Assembly (NCBI GenBank): GCA_965602015.1 | Contig: OZ271918.1 | Span: 3,328,001 to 3,392,000 of the forward strand | From: Salinispira sp. | GTDB lineage: Bacteria > Spirochaetota > Spirochaetia > DSM-27196 > Salinispiraceae | Direction of reading: 5' to 3' | Length of the DNA: 64,000 bases | Part shown: positions 1,316 to 25,994 of the stretch, piece after piece | Numbering within the stretch: the first letter of the stretch is position 1 | How the letters are laid out: every line of letters begins with the position of its first letter | Translations under genes and position numbers: made by a program | Notes under the pieces: generated by a model | Told to the model about the DNA's origin: nothing | What the model saw: only the letters and a program-made list of their open reading frames with translations | Database searches by the model: none

Positions 1316-1328
1316 GGGATGTTAGCTC

Positions 1329-2435: not shown

Positions 2436-2494
2436 ATCAGGCTCCTTTGCTGCAATCCCTGCATTCAATCCAGGGAAATGATACACAGTCCCTG

Positions 2495-2680
2495 TTATTA
2501 CCTTATTTATATTAATTAGTAGTAGTAATAGTAGGGCCTGTTGAAATGTGAATTCAGGGCCTAAGTCATTCCAGTACCACTATCTATCTATGTGGATACT
2601 TTCCGGGCAACCGGGTTTTTTTATCCACATTTCCACATATACTTACGGTTTTCCACATAAACTGTCAATGAATTCACATT
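2495..2680. other. Chromosomal replication origin oriC (DnaA boxes, DnaA-trios, AT-rich element)
   Basis: dnaA-dnaN intergenic region. Perfect TTATCCACA at 2621-2629; near matches TGTGGATAC 2591-2599, TTTTCCACA 2649-2657, ATTTCCACA 2629-2637. Six TAG/TAA trios at 2517-2534 next to GGCC, with an AT-rich tract at ~2495-2516. Confidence 0.92.
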
Positions 2681-2699
2681 GTATCAGCTGTTTGGAGAA

Positions 2700-4142: not shown

Positions 4143-4252
4143 GTCACCTCCCGCAACTGTCCATAATACGCGCAAGTCGGCCCTTTTTCAATGAGCGATG
4201 CAAATCGCCGATAAATCACGATTTGAGAATCAGTTAGGCTATTTCGCCTTCC

Positions 4253-4281
4253 TTTACTTTTTGGCCCCCAAACGGTATAAT
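4253..4281 (+). promoter_or_regulatory. Putative sigma70 promoter of gyrBA
   Basis: TTTACT-17 nt-TATAAT, 40 nt upstream of the gyrB ATG. Confidence 0.6.
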
Positions 4282-4314
4282 CGCCGCACGTAAATCATAA
4301 AAAGGAATCACTAA

Positions 4315-6231
<1,917 letters not shown>

Positions 6232-6256
6232 CGCATAAAGACAACACGGAGCACAG

Positions 6257-8737
6257 ATGGAAGAACGAACGGGCAAAGTCATACCTATTGCCATAGAAGA
6301 CGAGGTAAAAAAGTCATACCTCAACTACGCCATGTCGGTCATCGTTTCCCGAGCGCTGCCCGATGTCAGGGACGGCCTGAAACCGGTTCACCGGCGGATA
6401 CTGTTCGGAATGAACGAAATGGGACTCAGGTCAGACCGGGCTCCAAAGAAATCCGCCCGTATAGTCGGAGACGTACTCGGTAAATATCATCCCCACGGCG
6501 ATGCCAGCGTATACGACGCCCTTGTCCGACTGGCACAGGATTTCTCGATGCGTTATCCCCTGGTGGACGGCCAGGGTAACTTCGGGTCGGTTGACGGCGA
6601 TCCCCCGGCGGCCATGCGTTACACCGAAGCGCGAATGGCAAAGCTGGCTGAGGAAATGCTGCGTGATATCAATAAGGAAACCGTTGACTTCGTTCCGAAC
6701 TACGACGACTCCATGGAAGAACCCGAGGTACTTCCAGCAAATTTCCCCTACCTTTTGGCTAACGGCGCCAGCGGCATCGCCGTCGGTATGGCCACCAATA
6801 TGGCCCCGCACAATCTCAATGAAATCTCGGCGGCCATAAACGCGTACATCGAAAATCCGGAAATAAGCATCGACGGCCTGATGGAACACATCACCGGACC
6901 GGACTTCCCCACGGGAGGGATTATTTTCGGAACCAAGGGAGTCCGCCAGGCCTACAAGACCGGCAGGGGAAAAATAACCATTCGGTCGAAGTTTTCCGTT
7001 GAGACGACCAAGAGCGGACGGGACGTCATCATCATCCATGAAATTCCGTACCAGGTGAACAAAGCGAACCTGGTGATGAAAATAGCCGATCTCATCCGGG
7101 ACAAAAAAATCGACGGCATATCCGACCTGCGGGACGAATCCGACAGGAACGGCATGCGAATCGTCATTGAACTTAAGAAAGGCATCAGCCCGAAGATTAT
7201 CCTGAACCAGCTGTTTAACCAGACCCAGCTGCAGATCAACTTCAATGTCAACGCCCTCGCCCTGGTCGACGGCAAACCCCAGCTCCTGACGCTGAAGGAC
7301 ATGATTCACCATTATGTCCGCCACCGGCGGGAAGTGATAATCCGCAGGACAAAATATGATCTGAGAAAGGCCGAGGAGCGGGCGCACATCCTCGAGGGCC
7401 TGAAGATAGCCCTTTCGAACATCGACGAGGTCATTCAAACCATAAAAGAGAGCGAGAACGTCTCGGTTGCCCGGGTACGCTTAATGGAGCGTTTTACCCT
7501 GAGCGAGATACAGGCCCAGGCGATTCTCGATATGCGTCTGCAAAAACTGACCAGCCTTGAGACCCAGAAGATACTCGATGAACTCGAGCAGCTCAACGCC
7601 CTCATCAAGGAGCTGCGGGAACTTCTGGCCAGCGAAGAGAAGATTCTCGGCGTGGTCGGTTCCGAGGTAGCAGAGCTGGCCGACCGATTCAGCCAGCCCC
7701 GTCAGACAGACAAGGTTATCGATGAAATCGAAGAGATTAATATCGAAGACCTCATACAAAAAGAAGACATGGTGGTTATTATCAGCCACAAAGGGTACAT
7801 CAAGCGGGTGCCTGTCAGCTCCTACCGCGTGCAGGGACGGGGCGGAAAAGGGGTGAATGCCAGCAACCTCAGAGACGAAGACTTCATCCAGAATATCTTC
7901 GTGGCATCGACCCACGATTACATTCTTATCGTATCAAGTGAGGCCAAGGCGTACTATCTCAAGGTACATGAAATTCCCGAGGGCTCCCGGACCAGCCGGG
8001 GATCCCACATCCGATCGCTTCTCAGCATCTCGGCAAACGAAGAGGTCGCCGCCGTGGTAGCCCTCCAGGCATTCCGGGACGACGAGTTTATATTCCTGGC
8101 CACCGCCAGGGGCATGGTGAAAAAGGTCGCAACATCTGATTTTAGCAATGCCCGGACCCGGGGAATTATCGCAATGGTCATGCGCGGCGACGACAAGATC
8201 GTCTCAGCTATTCTGTGCAGCTCGGACAAGGATATTATTCTCGCAACCAGGACGGGAATCGGGTTGCGCTTCAGCCAGGAAGAAGTTCGCCCCATGGGAC
8301 GTACCGCCCAGGGAGTCGGGGGCATACGGCTGACTGCTGGAGACGAGATTGCCGGAGCTGTGGAAGCTGAAGAGGACTATCAGGTTCTGTTTATTACCGA
8401 ATACGGCAGCGGCAAACGGATGGAAATCAGCGAACTCATGCCCCACGGCAGGAATACCCGGGGGCAGATAATCTATACAACCACCGAACGCTCAGGAGAG
8501 GTCGTAGGCATCCTGAACGTACAGGAAGACGATGAGGTTATGGTTATCACCAGCGGCGGAACTTCCATCAAGGTAAAAGCCGCCGATGTAGCTGTCCAGG
8601 GACGTACCGCCCAGGGAGTTCGGGTGTTTGATATCAGCAAGCCCGACGTGGTTGTGGGTATCGACAGGGTTGCCAAGGATGATCCGGAAGAGAAGAGCGA
8701 AGCGAAACCCTCCTCTGACGGAGAGCAAATCGAGTAG
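6257..8737 (+). CDS. gyrA: DNA gyrase subunit A
   Basis: [29 protein letters not shown], GyrA-box QGRGGKG. Confidence 0.98.
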
Positions 8738-10560: not shown

Positions 10561-10743
10561 CTGAAAGCAACCTTTCGTACTACTCTAATGGTAAACCCCG
10601 GGAATTGCCAAATTTTCCGCCAGGGCCTGATGGATTGTAATGTCCAGAACATTTCAATTTTCGGCAGCATGAAGGCGGTAGTTTATTTTTTTATGGGATT
10701 TTCATGTGAAGCTGTCGCAGGAGTCAGGTTCCCCCGGCTTATC

Positions 10744-10890
10744 AGCCACATATCAGGGAGTTGTAGTCTACCACAAATCGCATTAATACTCACGGATTTG
10801 GTTTGGTGACCGGAGCAGTTTTGCAGAGGGGATTTCTGTGCTGAAGGTATGTTGAAAGAAAGAAATGAATGGGGCGCGAGGATTCGCGCC
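10744..10890. repeat. ~150-bp island repeat, copy 0
   Basis: Homologous to 15689-15836 and 18676-18822; ends in hairpin GGCGCGA-GGAT-TCGCGCC. Confidence 0.9.
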
Positions 10891-10936
10891 TTCTGTATAC
10901 TGGAAAATAGTATCATTATTTGATATCATTCTTATT

Positions 10937-11190
10937 TTGAATGCCAAGAACCGTAAAATTCTGAAGGCGATCTTCACTGACCCGTGAAATCGAATATTGC
11001 CTGGTCCGACATCGAATCTTTACTGCTTAATCTGAATGCAGGAAGGAAGGAGGGTTCTGGTTCCCGAGTCGCATTCACATTGAACGGTGTTGTCTTAGTC
11101 ATTCATAGACTGTATCCGAGAAAAGAAACTGATAAAGGGGCTGTTAAATCGGTTCGGAGATTTTTATCGAACTCAGGAGTAATGCCATGA
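10937..11190 (+). pseudogene. hicA: HicA toxin, frameshifted
   Basis: TTG at 10937 gives MNAKNRKILKAIFTDP, then TGA at 10985-10987. The rest (VKSNIAWSDIESLL...EGSGSRV...DKGAVKSVRRFL) is in the -1 frame. Confidence 0.8.
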
Positions 11191-11522
11191 AATATAAAGG
11201 GTATACCGGTGTGGTCGAATATGATGATGACGCTCATATTTTCCACGGAGAAGTTATTGGGCTAAAAGATGTAATCACTTTTCAGGGATCATCGATTGAA
11301 GAACTTGAGGCAGCGATGGCCGAATCAGTGGATTTTTATCTCGAAGTATGTCGTGATAAGGGAAAGGAACCTGAGAAGCCGTTCTCAGGGAGATTTGTCG
11401 TCAGGACTTCTCCCGACCTTCATAGCCGCGCCGCTACCGCTGCAGCAAAACTGGGCTTATCACTGAATAAATATGTTGAAAAAGCTATCGAGGATGAAAC
11501 CCGACAAGTATTGCCCATGTAA
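11187..11522 (+). CDS. hicB: HicB antitoxin
   Basis: MKYKGYTG...FHGEVIGLKDVITFQG...EKPFSGRFVVR...LSLNKY; ATGA-coupled to hicA. Confidence 0.93.
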   Translation: MKYKGYTGVVEYDDDAHIFHGEVIGLKDVITFQGSSIEELEAAMAESVDFYLEVCRDKGKEPEKPFSGRFVVRTSPDLHSRAATAAAKLGLSLNKYVEKAIEDETRQVLPM

Positions 11523-11635
11523 TAACAACCACTTAACCTGTGAGCCGTATACTGGCGACTGGCGCGTGTCCTTGCCGGCGAAGCCGATGCAAGGACCGTG
11601 AAAATAGGCGAATCAGGTTGAAGTGCTTGTTATAT
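11519..11635 (-). mobile_element. Integron attC site downstream of vapC
   Basis: Minus strand: R'' ATATAAC, 5 nt, L'' CTTCAACC (extra C), variable stem with GTCCTTGC/GCAAGGAC, L' GGTTAAG, 5 nt, R' GTTATTA. Confidence 0.75.
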
Positions 11636-11684
11636 AGCAGTCGTGATAGGCTTCCGCAAATTTAGCTGCCAACACTGGTCCTGA

Positions 11685-12095
11685 CTAATCTGACACCCAA
11701 TTTTCCATCTTTAGATCCGGAATCCGTTCAAACTCTCGAAGATTATTTGAGACCAAAATCAGATCATGTGCCCTCGCCTGAGCTCCGATAAGCATATCCA
11801 TATTTCCTATAAGCTCACCTTTCCTGGAAAGCATTGCCCTGATATTTCCATATTCAAATGCAGCACTCGAATCAAAATCGACGATCGCAAAGGGTAATAA
11901 AAATTCAAAAAGGGCCTCCCGATTCCGCTCTCTAAATTCGATTGCAGATTTCGCAATTCCAAACTCCAATTCTGCGATCGTAATTGTGGATATTCCAATT
12001 GAGTCGATTCCGTGAGCTTCGATGCGCTCAATCAGGGATTGGAATTTTCGATTGATGAGATAGATACAGATATTCGTATCAAAGAGGTACTTCAT
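11685..12095 (-). CDS. vapC: VapC PIN-domain toxin
   Basis: YLFDTNICIY, ITIAELEFG, DMLIGAQA, LVSNNLREFERI. Confidence 0.95.
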   Translation of the reverse strand: MKYLFDTNICIYLINRKFQSLIERIEAHGIDSIGISTITIAELEFGIAKSAIEFRERNREALFEFLLPFAIVDFDSSAAFEYGNIRAMLSRKGELIGNMDMLIGAQARAHDLILVSNNLREFERIPDLKMENWVSD

Positions 12096-12098
12096 CTC

Positions 12099-12326
12099 TT
12101 ACAAATCTTCACGTGACTGAGGAAGATCATTTTCGTGAGCGAGTTCGAAATCAGGTGAAAACTTATCGAAGGATTGTTTAAAAAGATCCCAGACTTTATC
12201 TTTTGGAATGAGCATGACGATGTCATCGATCTTTTTGATAAATACGTCATCCCCAGAAAATCGATATTCCTTAGGAAGTCTGACTGCTTGGCTTCGCCCA
12301 TTTTCAAATAGTTTAGCTGTATCCAT
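12099..12326 (-). CDS. vapB: VapB antitoxin (AbrB/MazE-type)
   Basis: [20 protein letters not shown]; directly upstream of vapC. Confidence 0.93.
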
Positions 12327-12345
12327 TTCGTGCCCCTAGAAAATA

Positions 12346-12365
12346 ATATATATTCAAGTATATAT
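12346..12365. promoter_or_regulatory. Putative VapBC operator
   Basis: Inverted repeat ATATATA-N6-TATATAT just upstream of vapB. Confidence 0.5.
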
Positions 12366-12417
12366 CTACCGTCATAATCAATCAATGATTTGAGATCGAT
12401 CACAAATCAGGAACAAG

Positions 12418-13768
12418 AATGGTGTCCAAATTAGTTCGCAATTTCATGTAGGAGCCAGCTTCCTCCAGCGGGTTAAGCGGCTATTTTCGGGATGAGATCT
12501 CGTTGCTCATCCAGTATTTCCTTTTTAATATAGGCCTTGCCGGCTGTCCAGTCTTCCGTGTATTCAATCAGGAAACAGGTCACCAATCTCAGGTAAGAAT
12601 CCTGAGATGGGAAAATCCCGACGACTTTCGACCGCCGACGGATCTCCCGGTTCAGTCTTTCCAGCATGTTTGTCGAAGCGACCTTCCGATGATCGAGCTT
12701 TGGAAATTCATAGAACTGGAGTGAGTCTTCAAGTCCGTTATCCAGGATTTCCACCGCCTCAGGGAATTGCGATTCCAGATCATCCATCACCTGTTTGGCA
12801 TATTCCCGTGCGGTACCGGCATCCGGTTGAAGCCAGATATGTTTGATACGGGCGGCAACATGCTCTTTGTGTTTGGCTCTCACTTTTGCCAACACGTTCC
12901 GCATGAAATGTACTTTGCAGCGTTGCCAGCTGGAACCAAGGAATTCTTTCTGGATAGCATTCTTCAATCCCAGATGCGCATCTGAGACCACAAGCCACAC
13001 GGACCGAAGGCCACGCTCCTTCAACCTCTGGATCAGGAACCGGTAATTGTCTTCATTTTCAGCATCCATGGGCTCTATTGCCAGGATTTCCCGTTCTCCA
13101 GCCCTGTTGAGGCCGCACACGACCATAACCGCATGATTGTAGACTCTCCCGTCATCCCGGATCTTTTCATACAGGGCGTCTATCCAGATTACTGGGTACT
13201 CCGCTTCAAGGGGGCGATTGCGAAATGTATCAACCTGTTCATCAAGACCTTTGTTGATTTCTGAAACCTGGCTTGCGGAAATATTCTCGATTCCCAGCTG
13301 TTTTGCCAGACGATCAATCTTCCGGGTTGAAACGCCGTTAATGAATGCTTCCTGGACAACCTGAAGAAGCGCCTGCTCAGACCGGCGCTTCTCGGTGACA
13401 AAGAAGGGGATATACCCTCCCTTTCGGAGCTTTGGAACCACCAGATACATGGTACCTAATCGGGTATCAAAACGGCGAACCCGTGTTCCGGAAAAGTGAG
13501 TAGCCCGGTTGTGGGAGTGCTGACCTTTGGGGGCACCGACCTTGAATTCGACTTCGATTTTCATAAGCTGCTCTGTTGTCCATTTGAGCATCTCAAACAA
13601 GGGATCGGATTCACCGGTGAATTGGGATAGCAGATTCTTGAAATCTGCGGTAGAGTTTTTTGGGGCCATGATTACTTACTCCTTCTGGTTGTGTATCGCT
13701 ACTTAACCTTCGGAGAGAATTGTGGCTCCTTTTACTTTTCTAAATTGCGAACATTATTGGACGTGATC
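12418..13768 (-). mobile_element. IS256-family insertion sequence
   Basis: Imperfect terminal IRs AATGGTGTCCAAATTAGTTCGCAATTT and (rc) GATCACGTCCAATAATGTTCGCAATTT around the transposase. No target duplication visible. Confidence 0.88.
12473..13669 (-). CDS. IS256-family (mutator-type) transposase
   Basis: GVSTRKI, IWIDALYEK, LVVSDAHLGL, WQRCKVHFMRN, STNMLERLNREIRRR. Confidence 0.96.
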   Translation of the reverse strand: MAPKNSTADFKNLLSQFTGESDPLFEMLKWTTEQLMKIEVEFKVGAPKGQHSHNRATHFSGTRVRRFDTRLGTMYLVVPKLRKGGYIPFFVTEKRRSEQALLQVVQEAFINGVSTRKIDRLAKQLGIENISASQVSEINKGLDEQVDTFRNRPLEAEYPVIWIDALYEKIRDDGRVYNHAVMVVCGLNRAGEREILAIEPMDAENEDNYRFLIQRLKERGLRSVWLVVSDAHLGLKNAIQKEFLGSSWQRCKVHFMRNVLAKVRAKHKEHVAARIKHIWLQPDAGTAREYAKQVMDDLESQFPEAVEILDNGLEDSLQFYEFPKLDHRKVASTNMLERLNREIRRRSKVVGIFPSQDSYLRLVTCFLIEYTEDWTAGKAYIKKEILDEQRDLIPKIAA

Positions 13769-13833
13769 TGATTTTCAGCTACTCCTTTTTTCTGTTGCCG
13801 AAGAAATAGTAATGATGAACAACTTGAACAATA

Positions 13834-14076
13834 CTATATCCGTATCTCCTTTCCAATTGATAGAATGGTGATAAGTATTAGGAGGATGTAACCAATTGCG
13901 ACTCCATAGAATCTATAATCTATTTTAGATTTTTTTTTGATTTTGCTTATGAAATACGGTATCACAACGAAAGTCCCTAGTAGAAAGGGTACTAATATCA
14001 CGGGAAGACCCATGTTCTCAAATAACACAAATATTGGATCTAATATCCGCCGAAATAAATCTACTTTGGTATTCAA
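13834..14076 (-). CDS. Small two-TM protein, putative immunity for Rhs tip 1
   Basis: Starts 8 nt after the Rhs1 stop with an AGGAG RBS; AT-rich; two hydrophobic segments. Confidence 0.65.
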   Translation of the reverse strand: MNTKVDLFRRILDPIFVLFENMGLPVILVPFLLGTFVVIPYFISKIKKKSKIDYRFYGVAIGYILLILITILSIGKEIRI

Positions 14077-14084
14077 ATATACTC

Positions 14085-15644
14085 CTAATTATCAGGTAGA
14101 GTTTCACCAACAGTAAAGACAGAAACCCCAATGGAAGCCTCGGCAATTAGTACAGCTCTTGCACTATTTGTAGCAATAAATCGACCATTCGCCGAATTTA
14201 TAAATCTCTGAGCGCCTTGGTTAAATGCAGGTGCAGGGAGAATAAACCCAAGTACACCAGAAAAAGCTGATAGACCAGCACTTACATAATCACCCTCCAC
14301 GACATAGGCAACGCTTGCAAGCAAATCTAGTCCTGCAGATATTCCAAAAAGTATCGGTGCGGCGGCTGGTAAAGAAAAGACTGCAACCATCCCACCGGCA
14401 GTAAATGCTAAAGAAGCATTCGAAACAATGTCAGCAAATTCACCTACACCATCCAGACTATCGCTAGAAGGATCGTTATTCTGACTGTCAATCAAACCCG
14501 ATAGATCATATCCTGCAGCTTCATAATCCTGGATTCCTCGGAGCAGCTCTTTTGCTAAATCCTCTAACTCTTGCTTGTAGGCAAGAAATTCATCCAGCGT
14601 CATGCCGCTGGTATCTTGTTGTGAGAGTTTAACGAGTTTTTCTGACTGTTGGGTTATTGATTCCTGGGCAGAAATACCAGTGGAGACATGATTGATCTGT
14701 TCGGTTATTTCCTCATAGCTGGCAACCTCTGTTGTTGTTTCTTCTACGTTTCCATAATTCTCATTTTCAGGGGTTTTTGTATGGTAATCCCCGGCATCGA
14801 AGATCGTTGTACCCCAGCTCACTTCATTCAAACCGGTTGGATCGAAGTATTTGAGGGGATTGCTCGCTGCATACCGATACCAGTTCGAACCGAACCGTGC
14901 AGGATCCTCGCTTATAAACCTACCCGTCCCCGGGTCATACCACCGAGTATTGAAATAATACAGCCCGGTATCTTCATCCAGGTCCTTTCCGGTGTACATG
15001 AGGTTTTCTGTGTCAGCCATGGGTCCTAATTCTGATACCGAGTCGCCGAAGGGGGTGGTTTCTGCTGAGAAGACTTCGTTGCCGTCTTCGTCTGTCATCA
15101 GCACGGTGCTTCCCAGGTGGTCTGTGCCGTAGAAGTAGGTCTTTTCCGTGTTGGTGCTGTGGTCTACCACCCGTTTGGCAATGTGGCGGAGGTTTCTGAA
15201 TATGTAGTATTCGCTTTTCTCTTCTGTGTGCCGTTCGATTCTGTTGCCCTTTTGGTCGTAGACGTAATGGGTGATCTGGCCGTGTCGGTTTTTCTCCCAT
15301 ATCCTCAGGTTATTCACATCATAGCCGTATTCTTTTATTACCTCCAGATTGCCCTCTTCATCGAGCTCTTCGACGGTCTCAAGGCGGTTTAACAGGTCCC
15401 AGCTGTAGTGGCGGTAGGTTCCTGTCCGGTTGATGGTGATTTCACTGCCGGTGATTGTGGCGCTGTCTCCCCGTTCTGTGAGGTTGCCGTTCTCATCATA
15501 GGCATAGTAGTAGGTTCCGTCGTATTGGAGCAGGTCTGAGTTGGGGTAGTACTGGTATTGCTCACTCTGCATGCTGCCGGCGAGGATGCTTCGCATGGAG
15601 CGGTTGCCGTCGGGGGTGTAGTTGTAGAACTCGTTGCGGCCCAT
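14085..15644 (-). CDS. Orphan Rhs module 1: truncated RHS core plus hydrophobic (putative membrane-active) tip
   Basis: YD repeats, TDHLGS, YTGKDLDEDTGLYYF..RWYDP..GRFISEDP, NPLKYFDPTG cleavage motif; hydrophobic Gly/Ala-rich C-terminus. Confidence 0.9.
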   Translation of the reverse strand: MGRNEFYNYTPDGNRSMRSILAGSMQSEQYQYYPNSDLLQYDGTYYYAYDENGNLTERGDSATITGSEITINRTGTYRHYSWDLLNRLETVEELDEEGNLEVIKEYGYDVNNLRIWEKNRHGQITHYVYDQKGNRIERHTEEKSEYYIFRNLRHIAKRVVDHSTNTEKTYFYGTDHLGSTVLMTDEDGNEVFSAETTPFGDSVSELGPMADTENLMYTGKDLDEDTGLYYFNTRWYDPGTGRFISEDPARFGSNWYRYAASNPLKYFDPTGLNEVSWGTTIFDAGDYHTKTPENENYGNVEETTTEVASYEEITEQINHVSTGISAQESITQQSEKLVKLSQQDTSGMTLDEFLAYKQELEDLAKELLRGIQDYEAAGYDLSGLIDSQNNDPSSDSLDGVGEFADIVSNASLAFTAGGMVAVFSLPAAAPILFGISAGLDLLASVAYVVEGDYVSAGLSAFSGVLGFILPAPAFNQGAQRFINSANGRFIATNSARAVLIAEASIGVSVFTVGETLPDN

Positions 15645-15688
15645 AAGTTCGGCGGTGAGAATTTTCTAAAGTCGGGGGGATGAGAGAA

Positions 15689-15836
15689 AGCCACGTATCA
15701 GGGAGTTGGGGTCTACCACGTATCAGCACCAATAATCACGGATTTGGTTTGGTGACCGGGGCGGTTTTGCAAAAGGGATTTTTCTGCTGACGATATGTTG
15801 AAAGAAAGGAATGAATGGGGCGCGAGGATTCGCGCC
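15689..15836. repeat. ~150-bp island repeat, copy 1
   Basis: Homologous to copies 0 and 2; contains the direct repeat CCACGTATCAG twice. Confidence 0.9.
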
Positions 15837-15986
15837 ATTTTCACAAAGCACTTGGGCTGTGCTGTTTCAGGCTTCCTCCGTTTTTCTCAAGTGTATCTCT
15901 CCGCTCCTCGCGGTCAAGCCGCGCTTCGCTCAGGGGCGTTGACCACTCGTCGCTTCGAGACTGCCTCCTGAAAAAAGGAGGTCAGC

Positions 15987-16358
15987 ATGGCTGAGTATCT
16001 TTTCAAGGAACTGTCCTACACGGTGGTGGGAGCGTTGTATTCGGTGCACAACATCCTGGGTCCCGGGCTTTTGGAAAGCGCGTACGAGGGTGCGCTGGTT
16101 ATTGAGTGTCGCAGGCTGAATCTGGCGGTGGAACAGCAGAAGGTGTATCCGGTGTACTACAAAGGCGAGCTTGCCGGGGCGTACATTGCAGACCTGGTAA
16201 TTGAAGGAAAGCTCATCCTCGAACTAAAAAGTGTTTCCAAGCTCACTCCAGTTATGGAAGCCCAGCTCATAAATTACCTCAGGCTTTCGGGCATCCGCAT
16301 AGGGTACCTGGTAAACTTCAACGGCAGCAGGGTGGAGTTTAAGCGTTTTGTTGTGTGA
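15987..16358 (+). CDS. GxxExxY protein (PD-(D/E)XK nuclease-like), copy 1
   Basis: LGPGLLESAYE, YIADLV..EGK.I.ELKSV, AQLINYL, GYLVNF; AGGAGG RBS. Confidence 0.95.
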   Translation: MAEYLFKELSYTVVGALYSVHNILGPGLLESAYEGALVIECRRLNLAVEQQKVYPVYYKGELAGAYIADLVIEGKLILELKSVSKLTPVMEAQLINYLRLSGIRIGYLVNFNGSRVEFKRFVV

Positions 16359-16366
16359 AGTTTTTT

Positions 16367-16409
16367 CTCTTCTGCAGGCTGCTGCAAGCATCAGCGGTCT
16401 GCAGAAGAG
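16367..16409. terminator. 18-bp-stem hairpin after GxxExxY copy 1
   Basis: CTCTTCTGCAGGCTGCTG-CAAGCAT-CAGCGGTCTGCAGAAGAG; identical at 19373-19415. Confidence 0.55.
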
Positions 16410-16493
16410 TTCTTGCTCAGCGGGAGCAAGATGCTCTTCGATAGGTCCGTCACTGACTGACGTATGTCAAAGAACTTGTTTGTCGGCTCAACC

Positions 16494-16562
16494 CCCATAA
16501 GAAGGATACTTGGAGCTGACGCCGGGATTGGATCCGGCGCAGCTCAAGTCTGGTCTTATGGG
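16494..16562 (+). repeat. Variant attC-like hairpin A
   Basis: CCATAAG-7 nt-CTTG(G)AGCTG(A)CGCCGG-loop-CCGGCGCAGCTCAAG-6 nt-CTTATGG; two bulged bases as in attC. Confidence 0.6.
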
Positions 16563-16598
16563 TTTGTAGTACCCTGTCTTGTATGGCAAAATTGATCA

Positions 16599-17102
16599 TC
16601 ACATTGAAGACCAATCTATTTCGTAAATTTCAATTATTTTTGTTTTGTTTGAATATACCAGATTATAGGGATCAGATGAGGTCAAATCATTGCAATCATG
16701 TTCAATAACTCTCACAATGAACCTATACTCCTCAACCAAGGACGGTTGAATCTCCAATTCAACACCGACTACTGAATCGGTTTCGCGCAGTGTTTCGAGG
16801 ATTAAGTTCCCTTTCCCATCAAAAAAAGTCTGGGAATCATACTTGAGGAGTACATGAAAATCACGATATTCGGAATTTCTCGAAAAAAGTATCGCTTTTT
16901 CAATTACAGAGTTGCTCCCATCACAGAACGAGGCAGCAATTAAATATTGGATATTCTCGATAACAATAGTCGTATCCAATATGCTGAATTCAGTTGAAGA
17001 GAAAAAATCTTCGACTTCCGGGTTTATGTATTCTCCATCACCACATAGATGCGCTAAAAAAATTAACATATAAATTAATAAAAATGTATTTAATTTCTTC
17101 AT
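16599..17102 (-). CDS. Exported protein, putative immunity for the NlpC/P60 tip
   Basis: Starts 8 nt after the Rhs2 stop; N-terminal signal-like segment MKKLNTFLLIYMLIFLAHLC; acidic; AT-rich. Confidence 0.7.
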   Translation of the reverse strand: MKKLNTFLLIYMLIFLAHLCGDGEYINPEVEDFFSSTEFSILDTTIVIENIQYLIAASFCDGSNSVIEKAILFSRNSEYRDFHVLLKYDSQTFFDGKGNLILETLRETDSVVGVELEIQPSLVEEYRFIVRVIEHDCNDLTSSDPYNLVYSNKTKIIEIYEIDWSSM

Positions 17103-17110
17103 TTCATTTC

Positions 17111-18631
17111 CTACTCAAATAATATGTATCGCCAGTTTACTTGGCGGTTCTGGACATTGTGAACGGGTCTGAACGATCCTCGTATGATAATTGTACCGGC
17201 ATTAGACGGCGTATCATTGGTCCGTCCTCCCTGTGGATGTACCATCAGGCCATTTCCCAATTTTATTGTTACATGGTCGTAAACACCGTCCGGATCAGAT
17301 AGATTTCCCCAATCGTAATAATTCAGTGTACCTCTCGATCCATCACCCGCAACAGTTAAATTAGGATCGGTTGCTTGCCCATTAGCATTGCGTGTTCTGA
17401 GGAGTATTCCAGAAGCTTGTTCAATTACAGCCTCAGCCGTACCAGAGCAGTCTAATCCCCCCTTGTCATTATCTGGTTTGCCTCCCCAAATATACGGAGT
17501 GCCAACATATTTTTCGGCTTCATCCGCTAATCTGTCATTCAGTATTAGATTAACAAGCGGCTCTGACTGGTTATAATCTTCAACCAAAATATTGCGAATC
17601 AGATCATCTTCTGCAGACTGAATTTGTGAGTCAATTTCTTGAATCCATTCTTCATCATTGGTAATTGACTGGATTTGATCTCGTTCTGCATACAATTCTG
17701 AGATTCCGGTTTTTTCCTCTTCGATCATCGTGTACCGGATATTGGACAATACAGACTCTGGCATCCCTAAGTCACGTAGATTTTCTAGTTCAGTTTCATG
17801 TTCCTGGGAAATTAATCCGGACGGGTCTACATACCTCAACGGATTGTTTGCAACATAAACATACCACGCCCGGCCGTCGCGAGCAGGATCCTCGCTTATA
17901 AACCTCCCCACCGTTGGGTCATACCAGCGCGCATTGAAATAATACAGCCCGGTATCTTCATCCAGGTCCTTTCCGGTGTACATGAGGTTTTCTGTGTCAG
18001 CCATGGGTCCTAATTCTGATACCGAGTCGCCGAAGGGGGTGGTTTCTGCTGAGAAGACTTCGTTGCCGTCTTCGTCTGTCATCAGCACGGTGCTTCCCAG
18101 GTGGTCTGTGCCGTAGAAGTAGGTCTTTTCCGTGTTGGTGCTGTGGTCTACCACCCGTTTGGCGATGTGGCGGAGGTTTCTGAAGATGTAGTATTCGCTT
18201 TGCTCGTCGGTGTGCCGTTCGATTCTGTTGCCCTTTTGGTTATAGACGTAATGGGTGATTTGGCCGTGTCGGTTTTTCTCCCATATCCTCAGGTTATTCA
18301 CATCATAGCCGTATTCTTTTATTACTTCCAGATTGCCTTCTTCATCGAGCTCTTCGACGGTCTCAAGGCGGTTTAACAGGTCCCAGCTGTAGTGGCGGTA
18401 GGTTCCTGTCCGGTTGATGGTGATTTCACTGTCGGTGATTGTGGCGCTGTCTCCCCGTTCGGTGAGGTTTCCGTTCTCATCATAGGCATAGTAGTAGGTT
18501 CCGTCGTATTGGAGCAGGTCTGAGTTGGGGTAGTACTGGTATTGTTCGCTGACCGGGGGGCTGCCGGCGATGATGCTTCGCATGGAGCGGTTGCCGTAGG
18601 GGGTGTAGTTGTAGAACTCGTTGCGGCCCAA
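17111..18631 (-). CDS. Orphan Rhs module 2: truncated RHS core plus NlpC/P60 peptidoglycan-hydrolase tip
   Basis: Core nearly identical to Rhs1; NPLRYVDPSG; tip has YVGTPYIWGG, GLDCSG, YDHV, MVH (Cys-His-His). Confidence 0.9.
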   Translation of the reverse strand: MGRNEFYNYTPYGNRSMRSIIAGSPPVSEQYQYYPNSDLLQYDGTYYYAYDENGNLTERGDSATITDSEITINRTGTYRHYSWDLLNRLETVEELDEEGNLEVIKEYGYDVNNLRIWEKNRHGQITHYVYNQKGNRIERHTDEQSEYYIFRNLRHIAKRVVDHSTNTEKTYFYGTDHLGSTVLMTDEDGNEVFSAETTPFGDSVSELGPMADTENLMYTGKDLDEDTGLYYFNARWYDPTVGRFISEDPARDGRAWYVYVANNPLRYVDPSGLISQEHETELENLRDLGMPESVLSNIRYTMIEEEKTGISELYAERDQIQSITNDEEWIQEIDSQIQSAEDDLIRNILVEDYNQSEPLVNLILNDRLADEAEKYVGTPYIWGGKPDNDKGGLDCSGTAEAVIEQASGILLRTRNANGQATDPNLTVAGDGSRGTLNYYDWGNLSDPDGVYDHVTIKLGNGLMVHPQGGRTNDTPSNAGTIIIRGSFRPVHNVQNRQVNWRYILFE

Positions 18632-18675
18632 AAGCTCGGCGGTGAGAAATTTTTAAAGCCGTGGGGATGGGAGGA

Positions 18676-18822
18676 AGCCACGTATCAGGGAGTTTTGGTC
18701 TACCACCTATGGTACAAATCCTCACGGATTGGGTTTGGGGAGCGGGCCGGTTCTGTAAAAGGGATTTCTCTGCTGATGGTATGTTGAAAGAAAGCAATGA
18801 ATCGGGCGCGAGGATTCGCGCC
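18676..18822. repeat. ~150-bp island repeat, copy 2
   Basis: Homologous to copies 0 and 1. Confidence 0.9.
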
Positions 18823-18992
18823 TTCTTCCCTATGCCTTGGGCTGTGCTGTCTGGCTTCCCCCGTTTCTCTCAAGTGTATCTCTCCGCTCCTCGCGGTCAA
18901 GGCAGCCTGGTTGTTTTCTCAATTTATTGGCAGGTCTTCCCACCTTGACCACTCGTCGCTTCGAGACTGCCTCCTGAAAAAAGGAGGTCAGC

Positions 18993-19364
18993 ATGGCTGA
19001 GTATCTTTTCAAGGAACTGTCCTACACGGTGGTGGGAGCGTTGTATTCGGTGCACAACATCCTGGGTCCCGGGCTTTTGGAAAGCGCGTACGAGGGTGCA
19101 CTGGTTATTGAGTGTCGCAGGCTGAATCTGGCGGTGGAACAGCAGAAGGTGTATCCGGTGTACTACAAAGGCGAGCTTGCCGGGGCGTACATTGCAGACC
19201 TGGTGGTCGAGGGCAAGGTCATTGTTGAATTAAAAAGCGTTTCGAAACTTACCCCGGTCATGGAAGCCCAGCTCATAAATTACCTCAGGCTTTCGGGCAT
19301 CCGCATAGGGTACCTGGTAAACTTCAACGGTAGCCGGGTGGAGTTTAAGCGTTTTGTAGTGTGA
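18993..19364 (+). CDS. GxxExxY protein, copy 2
   Basis: Three amino-acid differences from copy 1. Confidence 0.95.
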   Translation: MAEYLFKELSYTVVGALYSVHNILGPGLLESAYEGALVIECRRLNLAVEQQKVYPVYYKGELAGAYIADLVVEGKVIVELKSVSKLTPVMEAQLINYLRLSGIRIGYLVNFNGSRVEFKRFVV

Positions 19365-19372
19365 AGTTTTTT

Positions 19373-19415
19373 CTCTTCTGCAGGCTGCTGCAAGCATCAG
19401 CGGTCTGCAGAAGAG
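19373..19415. terminator. 18-bp-stem hairpin after GxxExxY copy 2
   Basis: Identical to 16367-16409. Confidence 0.55.
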
Positions 19416-19452
19416 TTCTTGCTATCTGTCCGCATCATATGGAGTAAAAACA

Positions 19453-19478
19453 TTGACAATCCGTCGCTTATATGCGAC
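19453..19478 (+). promoter_or_regulatory. TA promoter -35 and palindromic operator
   Basis: TTGACA at 19453 followed by GTCGC-TTATAT-GCGAC. Confidence 0.55.
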
Positions 19479-19490
19479 ATTAATTCGATA

Positions 19491-19823
19491 GTGAGTATTG
19501 AATATGAAGTGATAATTTATTCGGACGAAAGTGGTAAAGAGCCATTTTCTAAATTTATCTCATCTATAACAACTCCGTTTCGCGCGCGGATTTTTTCTCG
19601 TCTTGACCGCGTCTCTCGAGGTAATTTGGGCGATGTAAAAATGCTTGGAGCGAATTTTGGCGAAATGAGATTCCATTTCGGTCCAGGGTTTCGAGTGTAT
19701 TTTGGAATCCATGAAAGGACACTCATTGTCCTACTACATGGTGGTACAAAACATCGTCAGAATAAGGATATTGAAAAAGCCAGAGTGTTTTGGCAGGACT
19801 ATTTAGAAAGGATGGTAAAATGA
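19491..19823 (+). CDS. RelE/HigB-like addiction module killer toxin
   Basis: GKEPFSKF, RLDRVSRGNLGDVK, EMRFHFGPGFRVYFG, LLHGGTK..QNKDIEKA; GTG start inferred. Confidence 0.9.
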   Translation: MSIEYEVIIYSDESGKEPFSKFISSITTPFRARIFSRLDRVSRGNLGDVKMLGANFGEMRFHFGPGFRVYFGIHERTLIVLLHGGTKHRQNKDIEKARVFWQDYLERMVK

Positions 19824-20116
19824 AAAATTATAGAAAATTGGTTCAAGAATATGTCAAAGATCCTAACGAAGCATACGAATACCTAAAGGCATCACTTGAA
19901 GATTATGAAACAGATGGGGATCTCGATGCATTCCTTCTCGCTATACGAACAGTTGCAGATGCGCAGGGCGGGATGACAAAACTTTCAGAAGTTACCCATC
20001 TTAATCGACAACATCTATACCGTTCGCTTGCTCGAAATGGGAACCCAACGATAAAAACCCTTGATTCGATACTGCATGCCCTCGGGCTAAAACTGACAGT
20101 AACAAAGGCTTCCTGA
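19820..20116 (+). CDS. Addiction module antidote (HTH) antitoxin
   Basis: YLKASLE, FLLAIRTVADAQGGMTKL, LNRQHLYRSL...GNPT; ATGA overlap with the toxin. Confidence 0.92.
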   Translation: MKNYRKLVQEYVKDPNEAYEYLKASLEDYETDGDLDAFLLAIRTVADAQGGMTKLSEVTHLNRQHLYRSLARNGNPTIKTLDSILHALGLKLTVTKAS

Positions 20117-20201
20117 ATTTCAATTGGGATTGCCGAAGGTAAGCTCTTTGACTGAATGGTCACTTACTTACGTTTTTCAAAGAAGGCTTCGCCGGCTTTC
20201 C

Positions 20202-20272
20202 CCCCATAAGAAAGATACTTGGAGCTGACGCCGGGTTTGGATCCGGCGCAGCTCAAGTTGGGTCTTATGGGG
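20202..20272 (+). repeat. Variant attC-like hairpin B
   Basis: Same architecture as 16494-16562; differences fall in spacers and loop. Confidence 0.6.
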
Positions 20273-20348
20273 TGTTTATCTTGCGCTGAAACAAGAATTC
20301 TTTTGAACAGAATAGAATCTTCAACATCACTCCACTCATTTGACCATA

Positions 20349-20534
20349 TCATTGAAGTAGCGTAAGGATAAATTCAATTGTACCAGCACCGATAAACATG
20401 ATTCCGCCAAAAATAAATAGTTGCCTGCGCTTACGCTTTACGAAACTTGCATCTCTGTCTTGGCTATTAACAAAAAACAGCGATAAAACTATTGATGAGA
20501 TACCTATGAAAATGTATACGAATCCTTCAAACAT
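20349..20534 (-). CDS. Small two-TM protein, putative immunity for Rhs tip 3
   Basis: GGAGG RBS; two hydrophobic helices joined by a basic loop KRKRR; follows the Rhs3 tip. Confidence 0.65.
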   Translation of the reverse strand: MFEGFVYIFIGISSIVLSLFFVNSQDRDASFVKRKRRQLFIFGGIMFIGAGTIEFILTLLQ

Positions 20535-20543
20535 ACGACCTCC

Positions 20544-21903
20544 TTATTGAGTTATTTCTCCTACCCCTAATTCATACATGTCACATATAAACCAAGCAAA
20601 ATCTTCATTTTGTGTTATGGCAAGCACAGTCGGAAATACAATATTTTCTGGTATTGATTGTTCTGTTCCCATAAGCCCTTCTATAAACCTTTCCGTAATT
20701 TAATGTCAGATCAGCAATACCGGTTAGTATTATTGGTATTCCAACAAAATCTCCAGGACCAGGAATTGGTGAATCTAGTGCAGCAAAGCCTAATCCGACA
20801 CTAATCTGACCGAAGCCTCTGAACATTCCGCCTATTCCTTCAAGGGTCCTTACTAAATCAATCTGCCAAGTTTGAGAAACGCTACTGTGAGCACCTGCTG
20901 TTGATTCTGTTGCTTCACTCATGTATCCAGCAGCTTCATAATCCTGGATCCCTTGGAGCAGCTCCCTTGCTAAATCCTCTAACTCTTGCTGGTAAGCAAG
21001 AAATTCATCCAAGGTCATGCCGCTGGTATCTTGTTGTGAGAGTTTAACGAGCTTTTCTGACTGTTGGGTTATTGATTCCTGGGCAGAAATACCAGTGGAG
21101 ACATGATTGATCTGTTCGGTTATTTCCTCATAGCTGGCAACCTCTGTTGTTGTTTCTTCTACGTTTCCATAATTCTCATTTTCAGGGGTATCTGTGTGAT
21201 AATCCCCGGCATCGAATATGCTCGTGCCCCAGCTCACTTCATTCAAACCGGTCGGATCGAAGTATTTGAGGGGATTGCTCGCTGCATACCGGTACCAGTT
21301 CGATCCGAACCTCGCCGGATCCTCGCTTATAAACCTCCCGGTCCCCGGGTCATACCACCGAGCATTGAAATAGTACAACCCGGTATCTTCATCCAGGTCC
21401 TTGCCGGTGTACATGAGGTTTTCTGTGTCGGTCATGGGTCCTGATTCGGAGACCGAGTCGCCGAAGGGGGTGGTTTCTCCGGAGAAGACTTCGTTGCCAA
21501 AGCTGTCTGTCATCAGGACGGTGCTTCCCAGGTGGTCTGTGCCGTAGAAGTAGATCTGGGCTACATTGGTTTGCTTGTCCACTACCCGTTTGGCGATGTG
21601 GCGGAGATTTCTGAAGATGTAGTATTCGCTTCTTTGGTCTGTGTGCCGTTCGATTCTGTTGCCCTTTTGGTCGTAGACGTAATGGGTGATTTGGCCATGT
21701 CGGTTTTTCTCCCATATCCTCAGGTTATTCACATCATAGCCGTATTCTTTTATCACGCCCAGATTGCCCTCTTCATCGAGGTCTTCGACGTTTTCCAGGC
21801 GGTTTAACAGGTCCCAGCTGTAGTGGCGGTAGGTTCCTGTCCGGTTGATGGTGATTTTAGTGCCGGTGATTGTGGCGCTGTCTCCCCGTTTGATGAGGTT
21901 TCC
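20544..21903 (-). pseudogene. Orphan Rhs module 3, 5'-truncated, tip frameshifted
   Basis: Core homology to Rhs1/2 begins ~21903 with no start codon until GTG 21756. An alternative frame from ~20690 runs to TAA at 20544 beside the immunity RBS. Confidence 0.8.
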
Positions 21904-21914
21904 CTCGGAGGTGT

Positions 21915-22763: not shown

Positions 22764-22874
22764 ATACGCTGTATAGCATATCCTCCGGGAAATGAGAATA
22801 TTTAATGCCGACGGCACGAGTTAGGCGTAAATCGCAATGACACAAGCGGAAGCTTTTATTATACTGTGGCCTCT

Positions 22875-23630
22875 ATGGCCAGGATTATCGTATTTGCAAA
22901 TCAGAAGGGCGGTGTTGGTAAAACCACATCGGCGGCAAACCTCGGAGCATATCTCGCGGAGGAAGGTCAGCGCGTCCTTCTGGTTGATTTTGATCCCCAG
23001 TGTAACCTCAGTTCTTCGGTCGGGGCCGACAAGGACCGCGGCGGTATTTACGAGCTCATTACCAGCAAAGAGGATCCGCAAAAATACATTCAGGATACCT
23101 CGGTGGATCGGCTCAGGATTATTCCCGCGAGCCCCGATCTGTCCGGAGCGACAGTGGAACTGGTGGGAGAACAGAACCGGGAGTATTTTCTTAAAAAGGT
23201 TCTCACCGAACTCAGGGATCAGTTCGACTACATCTTTATCGACTGTCCCCCCAGCCTGGGCATATTAACCCTTAACGGATTGAGCGCCGCCGACCAGGTT
23301 TACATTCCCCTGCAGACCGAGTATTTCGCCCTCGAGGGAATTACCCAGCTGATGCAGAGCATAAAAATGGTGCAGCGTTCAAGCAATCCGAAGCTCAGCA
23401 TCGGGGGCATTATTTTTACCATGTATGATTCCCGAACCCGTCTCGCCCAGGATGTTGTCAAGGAAGTTGTAGGATACTTCGGCGACCTGGTGTTCAAGTC
23501 GATTATTCCCCGCAATGTCCGGCTTTCCGAGGCCCCCTCCCATTCCGTTCCCATAAATCAGTACGATCCGGGCTGTGCCGGCGCGAAGAGCTACAGGGAA
23601 CTGGCCCGGGAGGTAATTCAGCGTGGCTAA
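22875..23630 (+). CDS. parA: Chromosome partitioning ATPase ParA/Soj
   Basis: NQKGGVGKTT, DFDPQ, IDCPPSLG, IPRNVRLSEAPS. Confidence 0.96.
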   Translation: MARIIVFANQKGGVGKTTSAANLGAYLAEEGQRVLLVDFDPQCNLSSSVGADKDRGGIYELITSKEDPQKYIQDTSVDRLRIIPASPDLSGATVELVGEQNREYFLKKVLTELRDQFDYIFIDCPPSLGILTLNGLSAADQVYIPLQTEYFALEGITQLMQSIKMVQRSSNPKLSIGGIIFTMYDSRTRLAQDVVKEVVGYFGDLVFKSIIPRNVRLSEAPSHSVPINQYDPGCAGAKSYRELAREVIQRG

Positions 23631-24615
23631 AAAAGCCCTCGGCCGAGGCCTGAGTTCCCTGATGCCCGAGACCGTTGCCCAGGCTGAATCCCAGGGGCAG
23701 CAGGTCCTCATGATCGGCCTGGCCGATCTCGAGCCGAATCCCGACCAGCCCAGAAAAGATTTCCAGGCGGATCTGCTTGAAGAACTCGCCGCCTCAATTC
23801 GCGAAAAGGGTGTCATCCAGCCCCTTGTGGCTGAACAGCAGGATTCCGGTAGATATATGATTATCGCCGGGGAGCGCCGGTTCCGGGCTTCGAAGATAGC
23901 AGGTCTCAGCGAGGTTCCCGTGGTCGTCCGGTCCTTCAGCGACGAGGATAAACTGGAAATCGGCCTCATCGAGAACATCCAACGGGAAGACCTCAACGCC
24001 ATTGAGGAGGCCTTGGGTTACCGCAATCTCATGGAGCGCTTTGCGCTTACCCAGGAAGATGTGGCCCGCAAACTGGGAAAGAGCCGTTCTGCGGTGGCCA
24101 ATGCCCTCAGGCTGCTCAAGCTCCCTCCGGAAATTCAGGACGCCATATCGGCTGAGGGCATCTCCGCCGGCCATGCCCGCGCCCTTCTCTCCATAAAGGC
24201 GGAATTCGAAGAACAGCTTACCGAACTGTTCAGTCTCATCGTCGATGAAGGCCTCTCCGTTCGCCTAGCGGAAAAAGCCGCGCGGATGATTAACGACGGT
24301 CACCGGATCGACGGTCTTCACGCCCGCCTCATCGGAGAAGACGGGGAAACAGATGATCCGGAGGAAAACCAGCGGCTGCGCCGGGAACTCATGGAGATGG
24401 CGTCCGGCGCGAAAACCGCATCTGGAGGATCGGCTTCCTCATCCGCTGCCGCCAGGCCCCGGAGCCCCGAGCTCTGGTCCATGGAAGAGAAGCTCATCGT
24501 CAAAACGGGTACCAAGGTCGAAATACGGGGAGACGAGAAGAAGGGCAAAATAGAAATCCATTACTTCAACCCCGATGATTTACAGCGATTGTACGAACTG
24601 CTGCTCAACGACTGA
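23623..24615 (+). CDS. parB: Chromosome partitioning protein ParB/Spo0J
   Basis: LGRGL, PNPDQPRKDF, IAGERRFRA, ENIQREDL, GKSRSAVANALRLL, GHARALL. Confidence 0.96.
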   Translation: MAKKALGRGLSSLMPETVAQAESQGQQVLMIGLADLEPNPDQPRKDFQADLLEELAASIREKGVIQPLVAEQQDSGRYMIIAGERRFRASKIAGLSEVPVVVRSFSDEDKLEIGLIENIQREDLNAIEEALGYRNLMERFALTQEDVARKLGKSRSAVANALRLLKLPPEIQDAISAEGISAGHARALLSIKAEFEEQLTELFSLIVDEGLSVRLAEKAARMINDGHRIDGLHARLIGEDGETDDPEENQRLRRELMEMASGAKTASGGSASSSAAARPRSPELWSMEEKLIVKTGTKVEIRGDEKKGKIEIHYFNPDDLQRLYELLLND

Positions 24616-25368: not shown

Positions 25369-25384
25369 TAGGCCTCGCTAAACT

Positions 25385-25472
25385 GGAGAGGTGTCCGAGT
25401 GGTTTAAGGAGGCGGTCTTGAAAACCGTTGTACGGTAGCCCCGTACCGTGGGTTCGAATCCCACTCTCTCCG
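25385..25472 (+). tRNA. tRNA-Ser(TGA)
   Basis: GGAGAGG acceptor, anticodon arm GCGGT-CTTGAAA-ACCGT, long variable arm, GTTCGAATC. Confidence 0.95.
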
Positions 25473-25538
25473 TTTGCGCAATGTAATAAAACAGTATATA
25501 AATGAGTGTGCGCGGCCGGTATTACCGGCGCATATTCT

Positions 25539-25626
<88 letters not shown>

Positions 25627-25631
25627 TTTTT

Positions 25632-25705
25632 GATCCCGTAGCTCAGCTGGATAGAGCATCAGTTTGCGGAACTGAGGGTCGGTGGTTCGAGTCCACTCGG
25701 GATCG
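25632..25705 (+). tRNA. tRNA-Arg(GCG)
   Basis: GATCCCG/CGGGATC acceptor, anticodon arm TCAGT-TTGCGGA-ACTGA. Confidence 0.93.
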
Positions 25706-25777
25706 TAGGGCTGTTCGGCGCTTTGCCGCGCCGCCGCCTTAATGCAGTACCCCGGTCCCGCCGGGTCGTGTTTTTCT

Positions 25778-25865
25778 GGAGAGGTGACCGAGTGGTTGAA
25801 GGTGCACGCCTGGAACGCGTGTGTGCCCTATCCGGGTACCGAGGGTTCGAATCCCTCTCTCTCCG
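25778..25865 (+). tRNA. tRNA-Ser(GGA)
   Basis: Anticodon arm CACGC-CTGGAAC-GCGTG, long variable arm. Confidence 0.95.
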
Positions 25866-25869
25866 TTCG

Positions 25870-25994
25870 CCCCTTTAGTGTTGAAAGTCAGGCACTGTGC
25901 AATGTGCCGTTACCCAACCCCGTCAGGCCCGGAAGGGAGCAGCGGTAAGTAATCGGTGTGTGTGCCGCAGTTCGCTTGACCGGAGCTAAAGGGG
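25870..25994 (+). ncRNA. ffs: Signal recognition particle RNA (4.5S)
   Basis: Domain IV motif TCAGGCCCGGAAGGGAGCAGC, closing stem CCCCTTTAG/CTAAAGGGG; upstream of dnaX. Confidence 0.9.

Follow-up and report, generated by a model that had tools for sequence, protein, structure and literature searches.

Can an attC-type recombination site occur in nature with its supposedly invariant GTT triad replaced, and what would such a site be doing behind an Rhs gene? The question is raised by two hairpins, A and B, in a stretch of 64,000 nucleotides from Salinispira sp. (contig OZ271918.1, positions 3,328,001 to 3,392,000; hereafter the window), which carry AAG/CTT and lie at the ends of short Rhs modules. 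Natural integrons are regarded as having an invariant GTT triad, and only laboratory mutants have shown that CTT and ATT sites are orthogonal to it. We found eight copies of the hairpin in this genome and related C|TT and A|TT families elsewhere (the bar marks the cut), mostly in spirochaete-type DNA and many of them behind predicted toxin genes. We tentatively read them as insulated sites of the integron integrase (IntI) that delimit predicted toxin-immunity modules. Strictly they are not attC sites, given their triad and spacers, yet they are built like attC and probably work, or formerly worked, in the same way.

Anatomy and copies of the AAG/CTT hairpin

Hairpins A and B have outer boxes of 7 bp (CCATAAG/CTTATGG) and spacers of 7 and 6 nt, and their left arm carries one additional G and one additional A, giving two bulges (C and T on the bottom strand). 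They differ at four positions, every one in a spacer or the loop, and are 94% identical, against 64% for the 55 nt upstream. Both fold at -24 to -26 kcal/mol on either strand (z of about -7), which was equalled by none of 200 shuffled sequences. The first-pass annotation, made from the letters of the window alone, had described the same boxes, spacers and extra bases at both positions, with differences confined to spacers and loop, and this description holds. Its wider claim that the hairpins are attC-like is supported, as is their homology to real attC sites. An attC-like pattern blind to the triad gave eight matches in the real genome and none in each of five Markov-shuffled genomes, and a search of Rfam with the hairpins returned no relevant match.

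As in integron attC sites (attC aadA7, the Vibrio cholerae repeat VCR and Treponema-type chromosomal attC), there is an R box of 7 bp, an unpaired spacer and a short terminal loop, and the L box has an extra base at position 4, followed at a distance of six or seven bases by another extra base, an A. The L-box and spacer letters resemble the native attC sites of the same genome. Unlike attC sites, the hairpins carry AAG/CTT (AAT/ATT in relatives), have a left spacer of 7 nt in the window genome and do not lie beside intI; their R'' and R' boxes are self-complementary in nearly all copies, and on the R' side the gene closest to them is a predicted immunity gene in convergent orientation.

The host genome is a single contig (C1) of 3.87 Mb, labelled G000, its relatives being labelled G001 and so on. 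BLAST and nhmmer located eight near-identical copies at three loci, with four of them at C1:1.925-1.938 Mb, a pair in the window and another pair at 3.790-3.796 Mb. The first-pass annotation had held that an isolated pair would speak against a recombination site; the pair is not isolated, with eight copies here and related families elsewhere. All eight have AAG/CTT in place of the AAC/GTT typical of attC and pair over 7 bp between R'' and R' (with a G-T pair in one copy), and all 176 stem cells of their alignment are paired. Each stands at the end of a repeat some 0.9 kb long (80-97% identical across the eight copies), made up of a 300-nt linker, a GxxExxY gene (in seven of the eight units; one interrupted by an insertion sequence [IS]), 130 conserved nt and, last, the hairpin. 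Facing each hairpin from the opposite strand is the end of a short Rhs module, consisting of an Rhs core, a variable C-terminal domain and a low-GC small gene whose position points to an immunity gene. The facing stop codon lies 6-79 nt from the hairpin in the seven copies measured. The genome has seven TIGR03696 cores, all within the three hairpin loci and none full length; six have a hairpin behind them and the seventh has IS256. A word that opens the short Rhs frames, CTTATGGG, was considered as a signal and set aside as probably mere coding sequence of a diverged allele.

Natural C|TT and A|TT sites in other genomes

Among relatives, attC-like AAT/ATT hairpins stand behind Rhs genes in G002 (two), G003 (one) and G005 (two). 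Collections were scanned for one triad each, GTDB for the A|TT form and JGI metagenomes for C|TT with a right spacer of 6 nt. The GTDB scan gave 34 matches, 11 of which fold at -14 kcal/mol or better; nine of these are labelled spirochaete and two Polyangia, and four have a same-strand Rhs core upstream and one more an Imm8 gene. The metagenomes gave 54 AAG/CTT matches (53 scored), 17 folding at -13.8 kcal/mol or better; the removal of one chance-like match and of identical copies left 11 distinct sites, all with 5/6 spacers. As with the window hairpins, eight of these sites have the end of a gene pair facing them. In six of the eight, the larger gene of the pair comes from a single non-Rhs family with a shared N-terminal part and variable tips, two of the six having an M23 peptidase tip, and the layout alone fits in the other two. 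The three remaining sites lie behind the same family in the same direction, behind a toxin-antitoxin-like pair and within an ordinary-looking cassette array. Members of this family (L152, L171, L188, L189 and L190) are polymorphic modules of 770-825 aa with variable C-terminal tips, and tandem modules are seen in L152, L188, L189 and L190; apart from the M23 tips they gave no Pfam or NCBIfam match, and their architecture suggests a toxin-like family. Sites are thus placed alike behind two toxin-like families that are unrelated to each other.

At the DNA level the window hairpin has few close relatives: 60 related genomes yielded none except a 24-nt match, and the pattern with the 7-nt spacer had no match in 400 other genomes of the phylum. 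Viral contigs gave no match to the A|TT pattern and five to the 7-spacer C|TT pattern, all folding poorly.

In none of the 39 distinct non-GTT sites does the second bulged A stand opposite a T, and in 31 of them all three outer R pairs form; neither property was imposed by the search pattern. In an alignment of 30 sites (26 non-GTT and four canonical), 95.9% of cells pair and two-sided changes number 96, against 32.8 in shuffles. The pair at the cut position is T-A in 16, G-C in eight and C-G in four, the other two being misaligned rows from the window. The bulge and covariation figures are inflated by the relatedness of the sites and by their selection, for which we used our own patterns and a filter on folding energy; this counts against the functional reading weighed below. 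Elsewhere, convergent pairs of attC-like stems occur behind toxin-like modules (L091:8715-8963, L123:673-867, L056:5592-5717 and L217:1226-1342), the second stem of L091 lying behind hicB and being likewise AAT/ATT. An attC-like AAA/TTT site that folds well (G593:C137:1566-1626) is not near Rhs; its triad is poor in the IntI1 assay.

The link with toxin modules was also compared between triads, using a triad-blind pattern over 401 genomes of the class. It had matches in 36 genomes, and the counts given here are among the matches listed, the majority being canonical sites from one family's large arrays. Outside large arrays, we compared all 13 A|TT sites with 12 G|TT sites, leaving out three G|TT sites on short contigs; of the 12, two are poor folders and one lies in a locus that is mostly masked. 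Seven of the 13 A|TT sites had an Rhs core upstream (six within 5 kb and one at 5.5 kb), as did none of the 12 G|TT sites (Fisher's test; P = 0.005, with sites that are not independent). The intI gene lay within 5 kb of three of the 12 G|TT sites versus none of the 13 A|TT sites. Matched-arm pairs dominate the listed non-GTT matches, and singly changed AAT/GTT sites away from arrays are found in two genomes.

Some metagenome C|TT loci look exchanged at the site. L171 and L188 have module and hairpin in common and not the other flank, L188 and L185 have hairpin and other flank in common and not the module, and in three pairs (L123/L139, L194/L171 and L174/L171) the hairpin is the only shared part. 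The right arm of L171 matches the left arm of L188 over 11 nt and its own over 7, and at L111 the R'' of one A|TT site fits the R' of the upstream site and not its own. These flank swaps fit a junction at the site, at a resolution that does not map the crossover to the cut base. Contigs from four runs of one sample gave no usable circle junction, their joints being accounted for by repeats.

Integrase supply and competing explanations

The two compensatory changes seen here have been made in the laboratory. According to Frumerie et al. (PMC2811028), engineered attC-CTT and attC-ATT recombine when given a matched partner and are insulated against G|TT sites: with IntI1, attC-CTT x attI-CTT reached 0.97 and attC-ATT x attI-ATT 1.0 of wild type (their Table 4), whereas against G|TT the values were 1.5e-3 for CTT and 3.1e-3 for ATT, a loss of about 300- to 700-fold. 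In the same source matched TTT gave 0.044 of wild type, an attC with two non-matching arms gave 6 x 10^-6 in absolute terms versus 2.2 x 10^-3, and GTT is called absolutely conserved among integrons known at that time. Those mutants were laboratory constructs tested versus a matched attI1, whereas the present hairpins occur in nature, in clusters at toxin-like loci. Under the IntI1 rule, if it applies, the hairpin is no good partner for native G|TT sites.

The window genome has one IntI (C1:1742714-1743973; TIGR02249, 380 bits for a cut-off of 265), colinear with VchIntIA and keeping Y26, K160, G161 and W219 by count of the alignment. Its AAC/GTT attC sites, with 5/5 spacers, lie at 1.716-1.742 Mb, with a second cluster at 3.44-3.456 Mb; the generic attC scan of the genome covered 3.0 of its 3.87 Mb. 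The attI was placed near C1:1742570 because a duplicate of the first cassette begins its homology at G|TT; resident attI and attC both use G|TT. The integrase-less second cluster is headed by another attI-like stretch (G000:C1:3456691-3456809), 84% identical to the region upstream of intI, and the native attC sites (G000:C1:1716706, 1738105, 3445378 and others) have loops that are long, variable and internally strongly palindromic; one type of site measures 155 nt. An IntI above the cut-off was present in seven of nine site-bearing genomes tested, G544 having a fragment only; G644 has three IntI genes, and the attC sites found adjoining intI genes in relatives were all AAC/GTT. A toxin-family match near intI in G655 proved to be merely an M23 domain. 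In the window genome the nearest hairpin (C1:1924730) lies 180 kb from intI and adjoins neither attI nor the array.

We favour, at a little short of an even chance, the reading in which the hairpins are insulated IntI sites. Sites of attC type with the cut-site G changed to C on both arms would mark the 3' end of predicted toxin-immunity modules. Acting on the folded bottom strands of two matched sites, IntI from a distant integron would release the intervening module as a circle. The Rhs core that the circle shares with a toxin gene would then allow homologous recombination to equip that gene with another toxin tip and its immunity gene. Such modules would be excluded from attI, and their rearrangement with the ordinary array blocked, by the one-base homology rule. 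The homologous re-entry at the toxin core follows what is known of Rhs systems: orphan Rhs toxin-immunity arrays, in which modules of core, C-terminal toxin and immunity gene stand in tandem with constant spacers, are reshuffled by homologous recombination. The loci described here share that tandem organization and those spacers, and differ in the attC-like hairpin at the 3' end of the module, for which we found no description. They also resemble the clusters of attC sites lacking integron-integrases (CALIN), as presented by Cury et al. (PMC4889954), in having two to four attC-like sites 3-5 kb apart, in IS-rich surroundings and with intI far off in the genome. Unlike CALIN as presented there, the sites are non-GTT, and the units are inverted repeated Rhs modules with a constant linker and a GxxExxY gene rather than unrelated cassettes. 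In a literature search from which subscription journals were mostly absent, we found neither a natural C|TT or A|TT attC family nor an attC-like site at polymorphic toxin loci.

Several observations weigh against this reading. The site-bearing genome G003 gives no IntI match. With no full-length Rhs gene of this core in the genome, the modules have no recipient. The homology among the eight copies extends 6-8 nt beyond C|TT and no crossover maps there; the break at C|TT for which the first-pass annotation had proposed to look is several bases further out. R'' shows no covariation with the module starts, though in the window genome these are too alike to reveal any. The left spacer measures 7 nt and the right 5-6 nt in the window family, against 5 and 5-7 nt in 32 other non-GTT sites, with 5-6 nt retained in the spacer of the arm that would be cut. 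The three stem changes in the family are all one-sided and all G-T on the + (top) strand. The top strand folds at least as well as the bottom strand in seven of seven distinct copies, whereas the bottom strand is the better fold in 25 of the 32 other sites, which had been pre-filtered on bottom-strand energy, and a bottom-strand bias is what is reported for attC sites (PMC5027507). Beyond this genome, most scanned Rhs loci are without a site, a 60-kb Rhs array in G644 has two only, which are identical, several sites are the sole one in their genome, and G633 has an Rhs-linked site that is G|TT and has 6/6 spacers. The published assay (PMC2811028) paired attC with attI1 under IntI1, and did not pair two attC sites under an enzyme from a spirochaete. 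Those copies that lie in the window may be partly decayed members of the family, and current activity is less likely for them than for the 5/6-spacer family.

Much of this could be explained if the hairpins were retired passengers, a plausible alternative to which we give appreciable but lesser credence. Ordinary cassettes with toxin-antitoxin, GxxExxY or immunity-like genes would have landed beside toxin loci and lost G|TT and with it the possibility of excision, so that their sites survive; the second arm would have been matched by palindrome correction, and the now inactive sites spread by homologous recombination at Rhs core and linker. The larger repeated unit can indeed account for the spread of the eight copies, a canonical attC stands behind vapBC in the same island, the window copies have an odd spacer and top-strand-biased changes, and both singly changed sites away from arrays and toxin arrays without sites exist. 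However, a single change already inactivates, so a change in the second arm is not needed for retirement, yet matched pairs prevail among the non-GTT matches listed. Palindrome correction ought to have removed the bulges too, and they are kept; the hairpin is better conserved than its flank, and the placement is the same with two unrelated families. The first-pass annotation had combined retirement with a role as a bidirectional terminator between convergent genes. Retirement stands as a strong rival, and the terminator part gains little beyond the convergent layout. A stem acting at the RNA level, ending or protecting transcripts, would suit the C|TT sites between convergent genes so close to the facing stop, as well as the + strand pairing kept by every stem change in the window family, but hairpins A and B have no T-run on either side, neither is in the list of the terminator scan, and the GxxExxY gene has a separate stem of its own. 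Such a role would also leave the bulges at attC positions and the triads used unexplained, finds no match in Rfam, and is in our view improbable.

The same low credence goes to the idea that the sites serve not IntI but the XerC/XerD-like pair of a ParA-primase-recombinase element that abuts Rhs modules. 3' fragments of such a recombinase lie near three sites (L110, L117 and L194), one G002 site is followed by the helix-turn-helix (HTH) gene of that element, and full elements adjoin an Rhs core in G633, with similar genes in G617 and G502. Against this, the window genome is without a close homolog, G617 and G502 yielded no site, and the pair scores as XerC/D-like, far under the IntI cut-off and in split stretches, and therefore lacks the IntI insertion, which reads extrahelical bulges. 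The divergent integrase with altered core specificity suggested by the first-pass annotation fares worst. A single non-G triad throughout a family does require a matched partner, and G644 has three IntI genes, but a separate enzyme with its own C|TT or A|TT attI is very hard to reconcile with a conventional resident IntI whose attI is G|TT and with the AAC/GTT sites beside intI in relatives. No altered enzyme is needed, because IntI1 itself recombines matched C|TT almost as well as wild type.

If the hairpins are insulated IntI sites, as we favour, Spirochaetes might have a second, orthogonal integron channel. A single IntI would then handle ordinary G|TT cassettes and, kept apart from them, the C|TT or A|TT sites at which polymorphic toxin-immunity modules are excised and reshuffled, the cut base acting as an address code; we think this extension rather unlikely. 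Natural CTT and ATT families behind toxin-like modules would show that nature exploits the one-base homology rule and would tie integron enzymes to toxin shuffling, and their sites would form a class that GTT-based annotation may overlook. If retired, the sites still record how attC exits the integron network.

The island in the window and neighbouring elements

Both window hairpins belong to an island (Table 1) that is missing from the syntenic place in G001, G002 and G005 and at whose ends no target duplication could be defined. Besides the Rhs modules, it carries vapBC, hicAB and a RelE-type pair.

Table 1. Features of the island, in positions of the window
Feature	Position	Strand	Remarks
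Whole island	10740..21910		Flanked by a UPF0176 gene and adenosine deaminase
Canonical attC (AAC/GTT), belonging to the native integron family	11520..11635	-	Behind vapBC; overlaps the hicB stop
Third Rhs module	14085..15644	-	Predicted immunity gene 13834-14076, then IS256 instead of a hairpin
Conserved non-coding linker opening the repeated unit	15688..15986	+	Other copies 18675-18992 and, short, 10744-10894
GxxExxY gene upstream of hairpin A	15987..16358	+	TIGR04256, PF13366
Conserved 130-nt stretch, GxxExxY to hairpin	16359..16494	+	Terminator-like stem 16367-16409
Hairpin A, attC-like site	16495..16561 (16494-16562 with the extra C/G pair)	+ (attC top strand)	Spacers of 7 and 6 nt, triad AAG/CTT, two bulges
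Predicted immunity gene, 167 aa	16599..17102	-	Stop codon 38 nt from hairpin A; no match in Pfam
Short Rhs module: Rhs core and NlpC/P60 C-terminal domain	17111..18631	-	TIGR03696, PF00877
GxxExxY gene, second copy	18993..19364	+	
RelE/ParE toxin-antidote pair, lying between GxxExxY and hairpin B	19419..20116	+	TIGR02683, TIGR02684
Hairpin B, of hairpin A type	20204..20270 (20202-20272 with the extra C/G pairs)	+	94% identical to A
Small open reading frame, 64 codons stop to stop, predicted immunity gene	20349..20543	-	Stop 79 nt from hairpin B
Rhs module, 5'-truncated at the island edge	20605..21905	-	

The three hairpin-bearing islands of the genome end at one point, within 3 nt, inside the Rhs core (window position ~21905, G000:C1:1922868 and 3788419), and two of the three ends have five more bases in common, which suggests a common element end or a common ancestor. 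The linker opens with an 11-nt direct repeat whose copies are 24 nt apart (window 15688-15725, 18675-18712 and 10744-10781); its homology stops at a minus-strand C-TT in seven of nine copies, which is faintly attI-like, with no cassette-type start after it. A more distant, frameshifted copy of the GxxExxY gene is found without a hairpin at G000:C1:1270120-1270490.

The recombinase element found beside Rhs genes in relatives has the order HTH, ParA, CHC2/Toprim primase, XerC and XerD (L209:9900-18335 in G633, L212 in G617 and L213 in G502). In G633 its last recombinase adjoins an Rhs core, a toxin tip and a predicted immunity gene, and the element may integrate into Rhs genes and thereby exchange their toxin tips.

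By gene names taken from translations, the island sits between a dnaA-gyrB-gyrA cluster (230-8737) and parA-parB (22866-24615), which places it at most about 10 kb from the likely replication origin. Further along the window, at 25383-25870, three tRNA-like repeats of about 95 nt each were observed.

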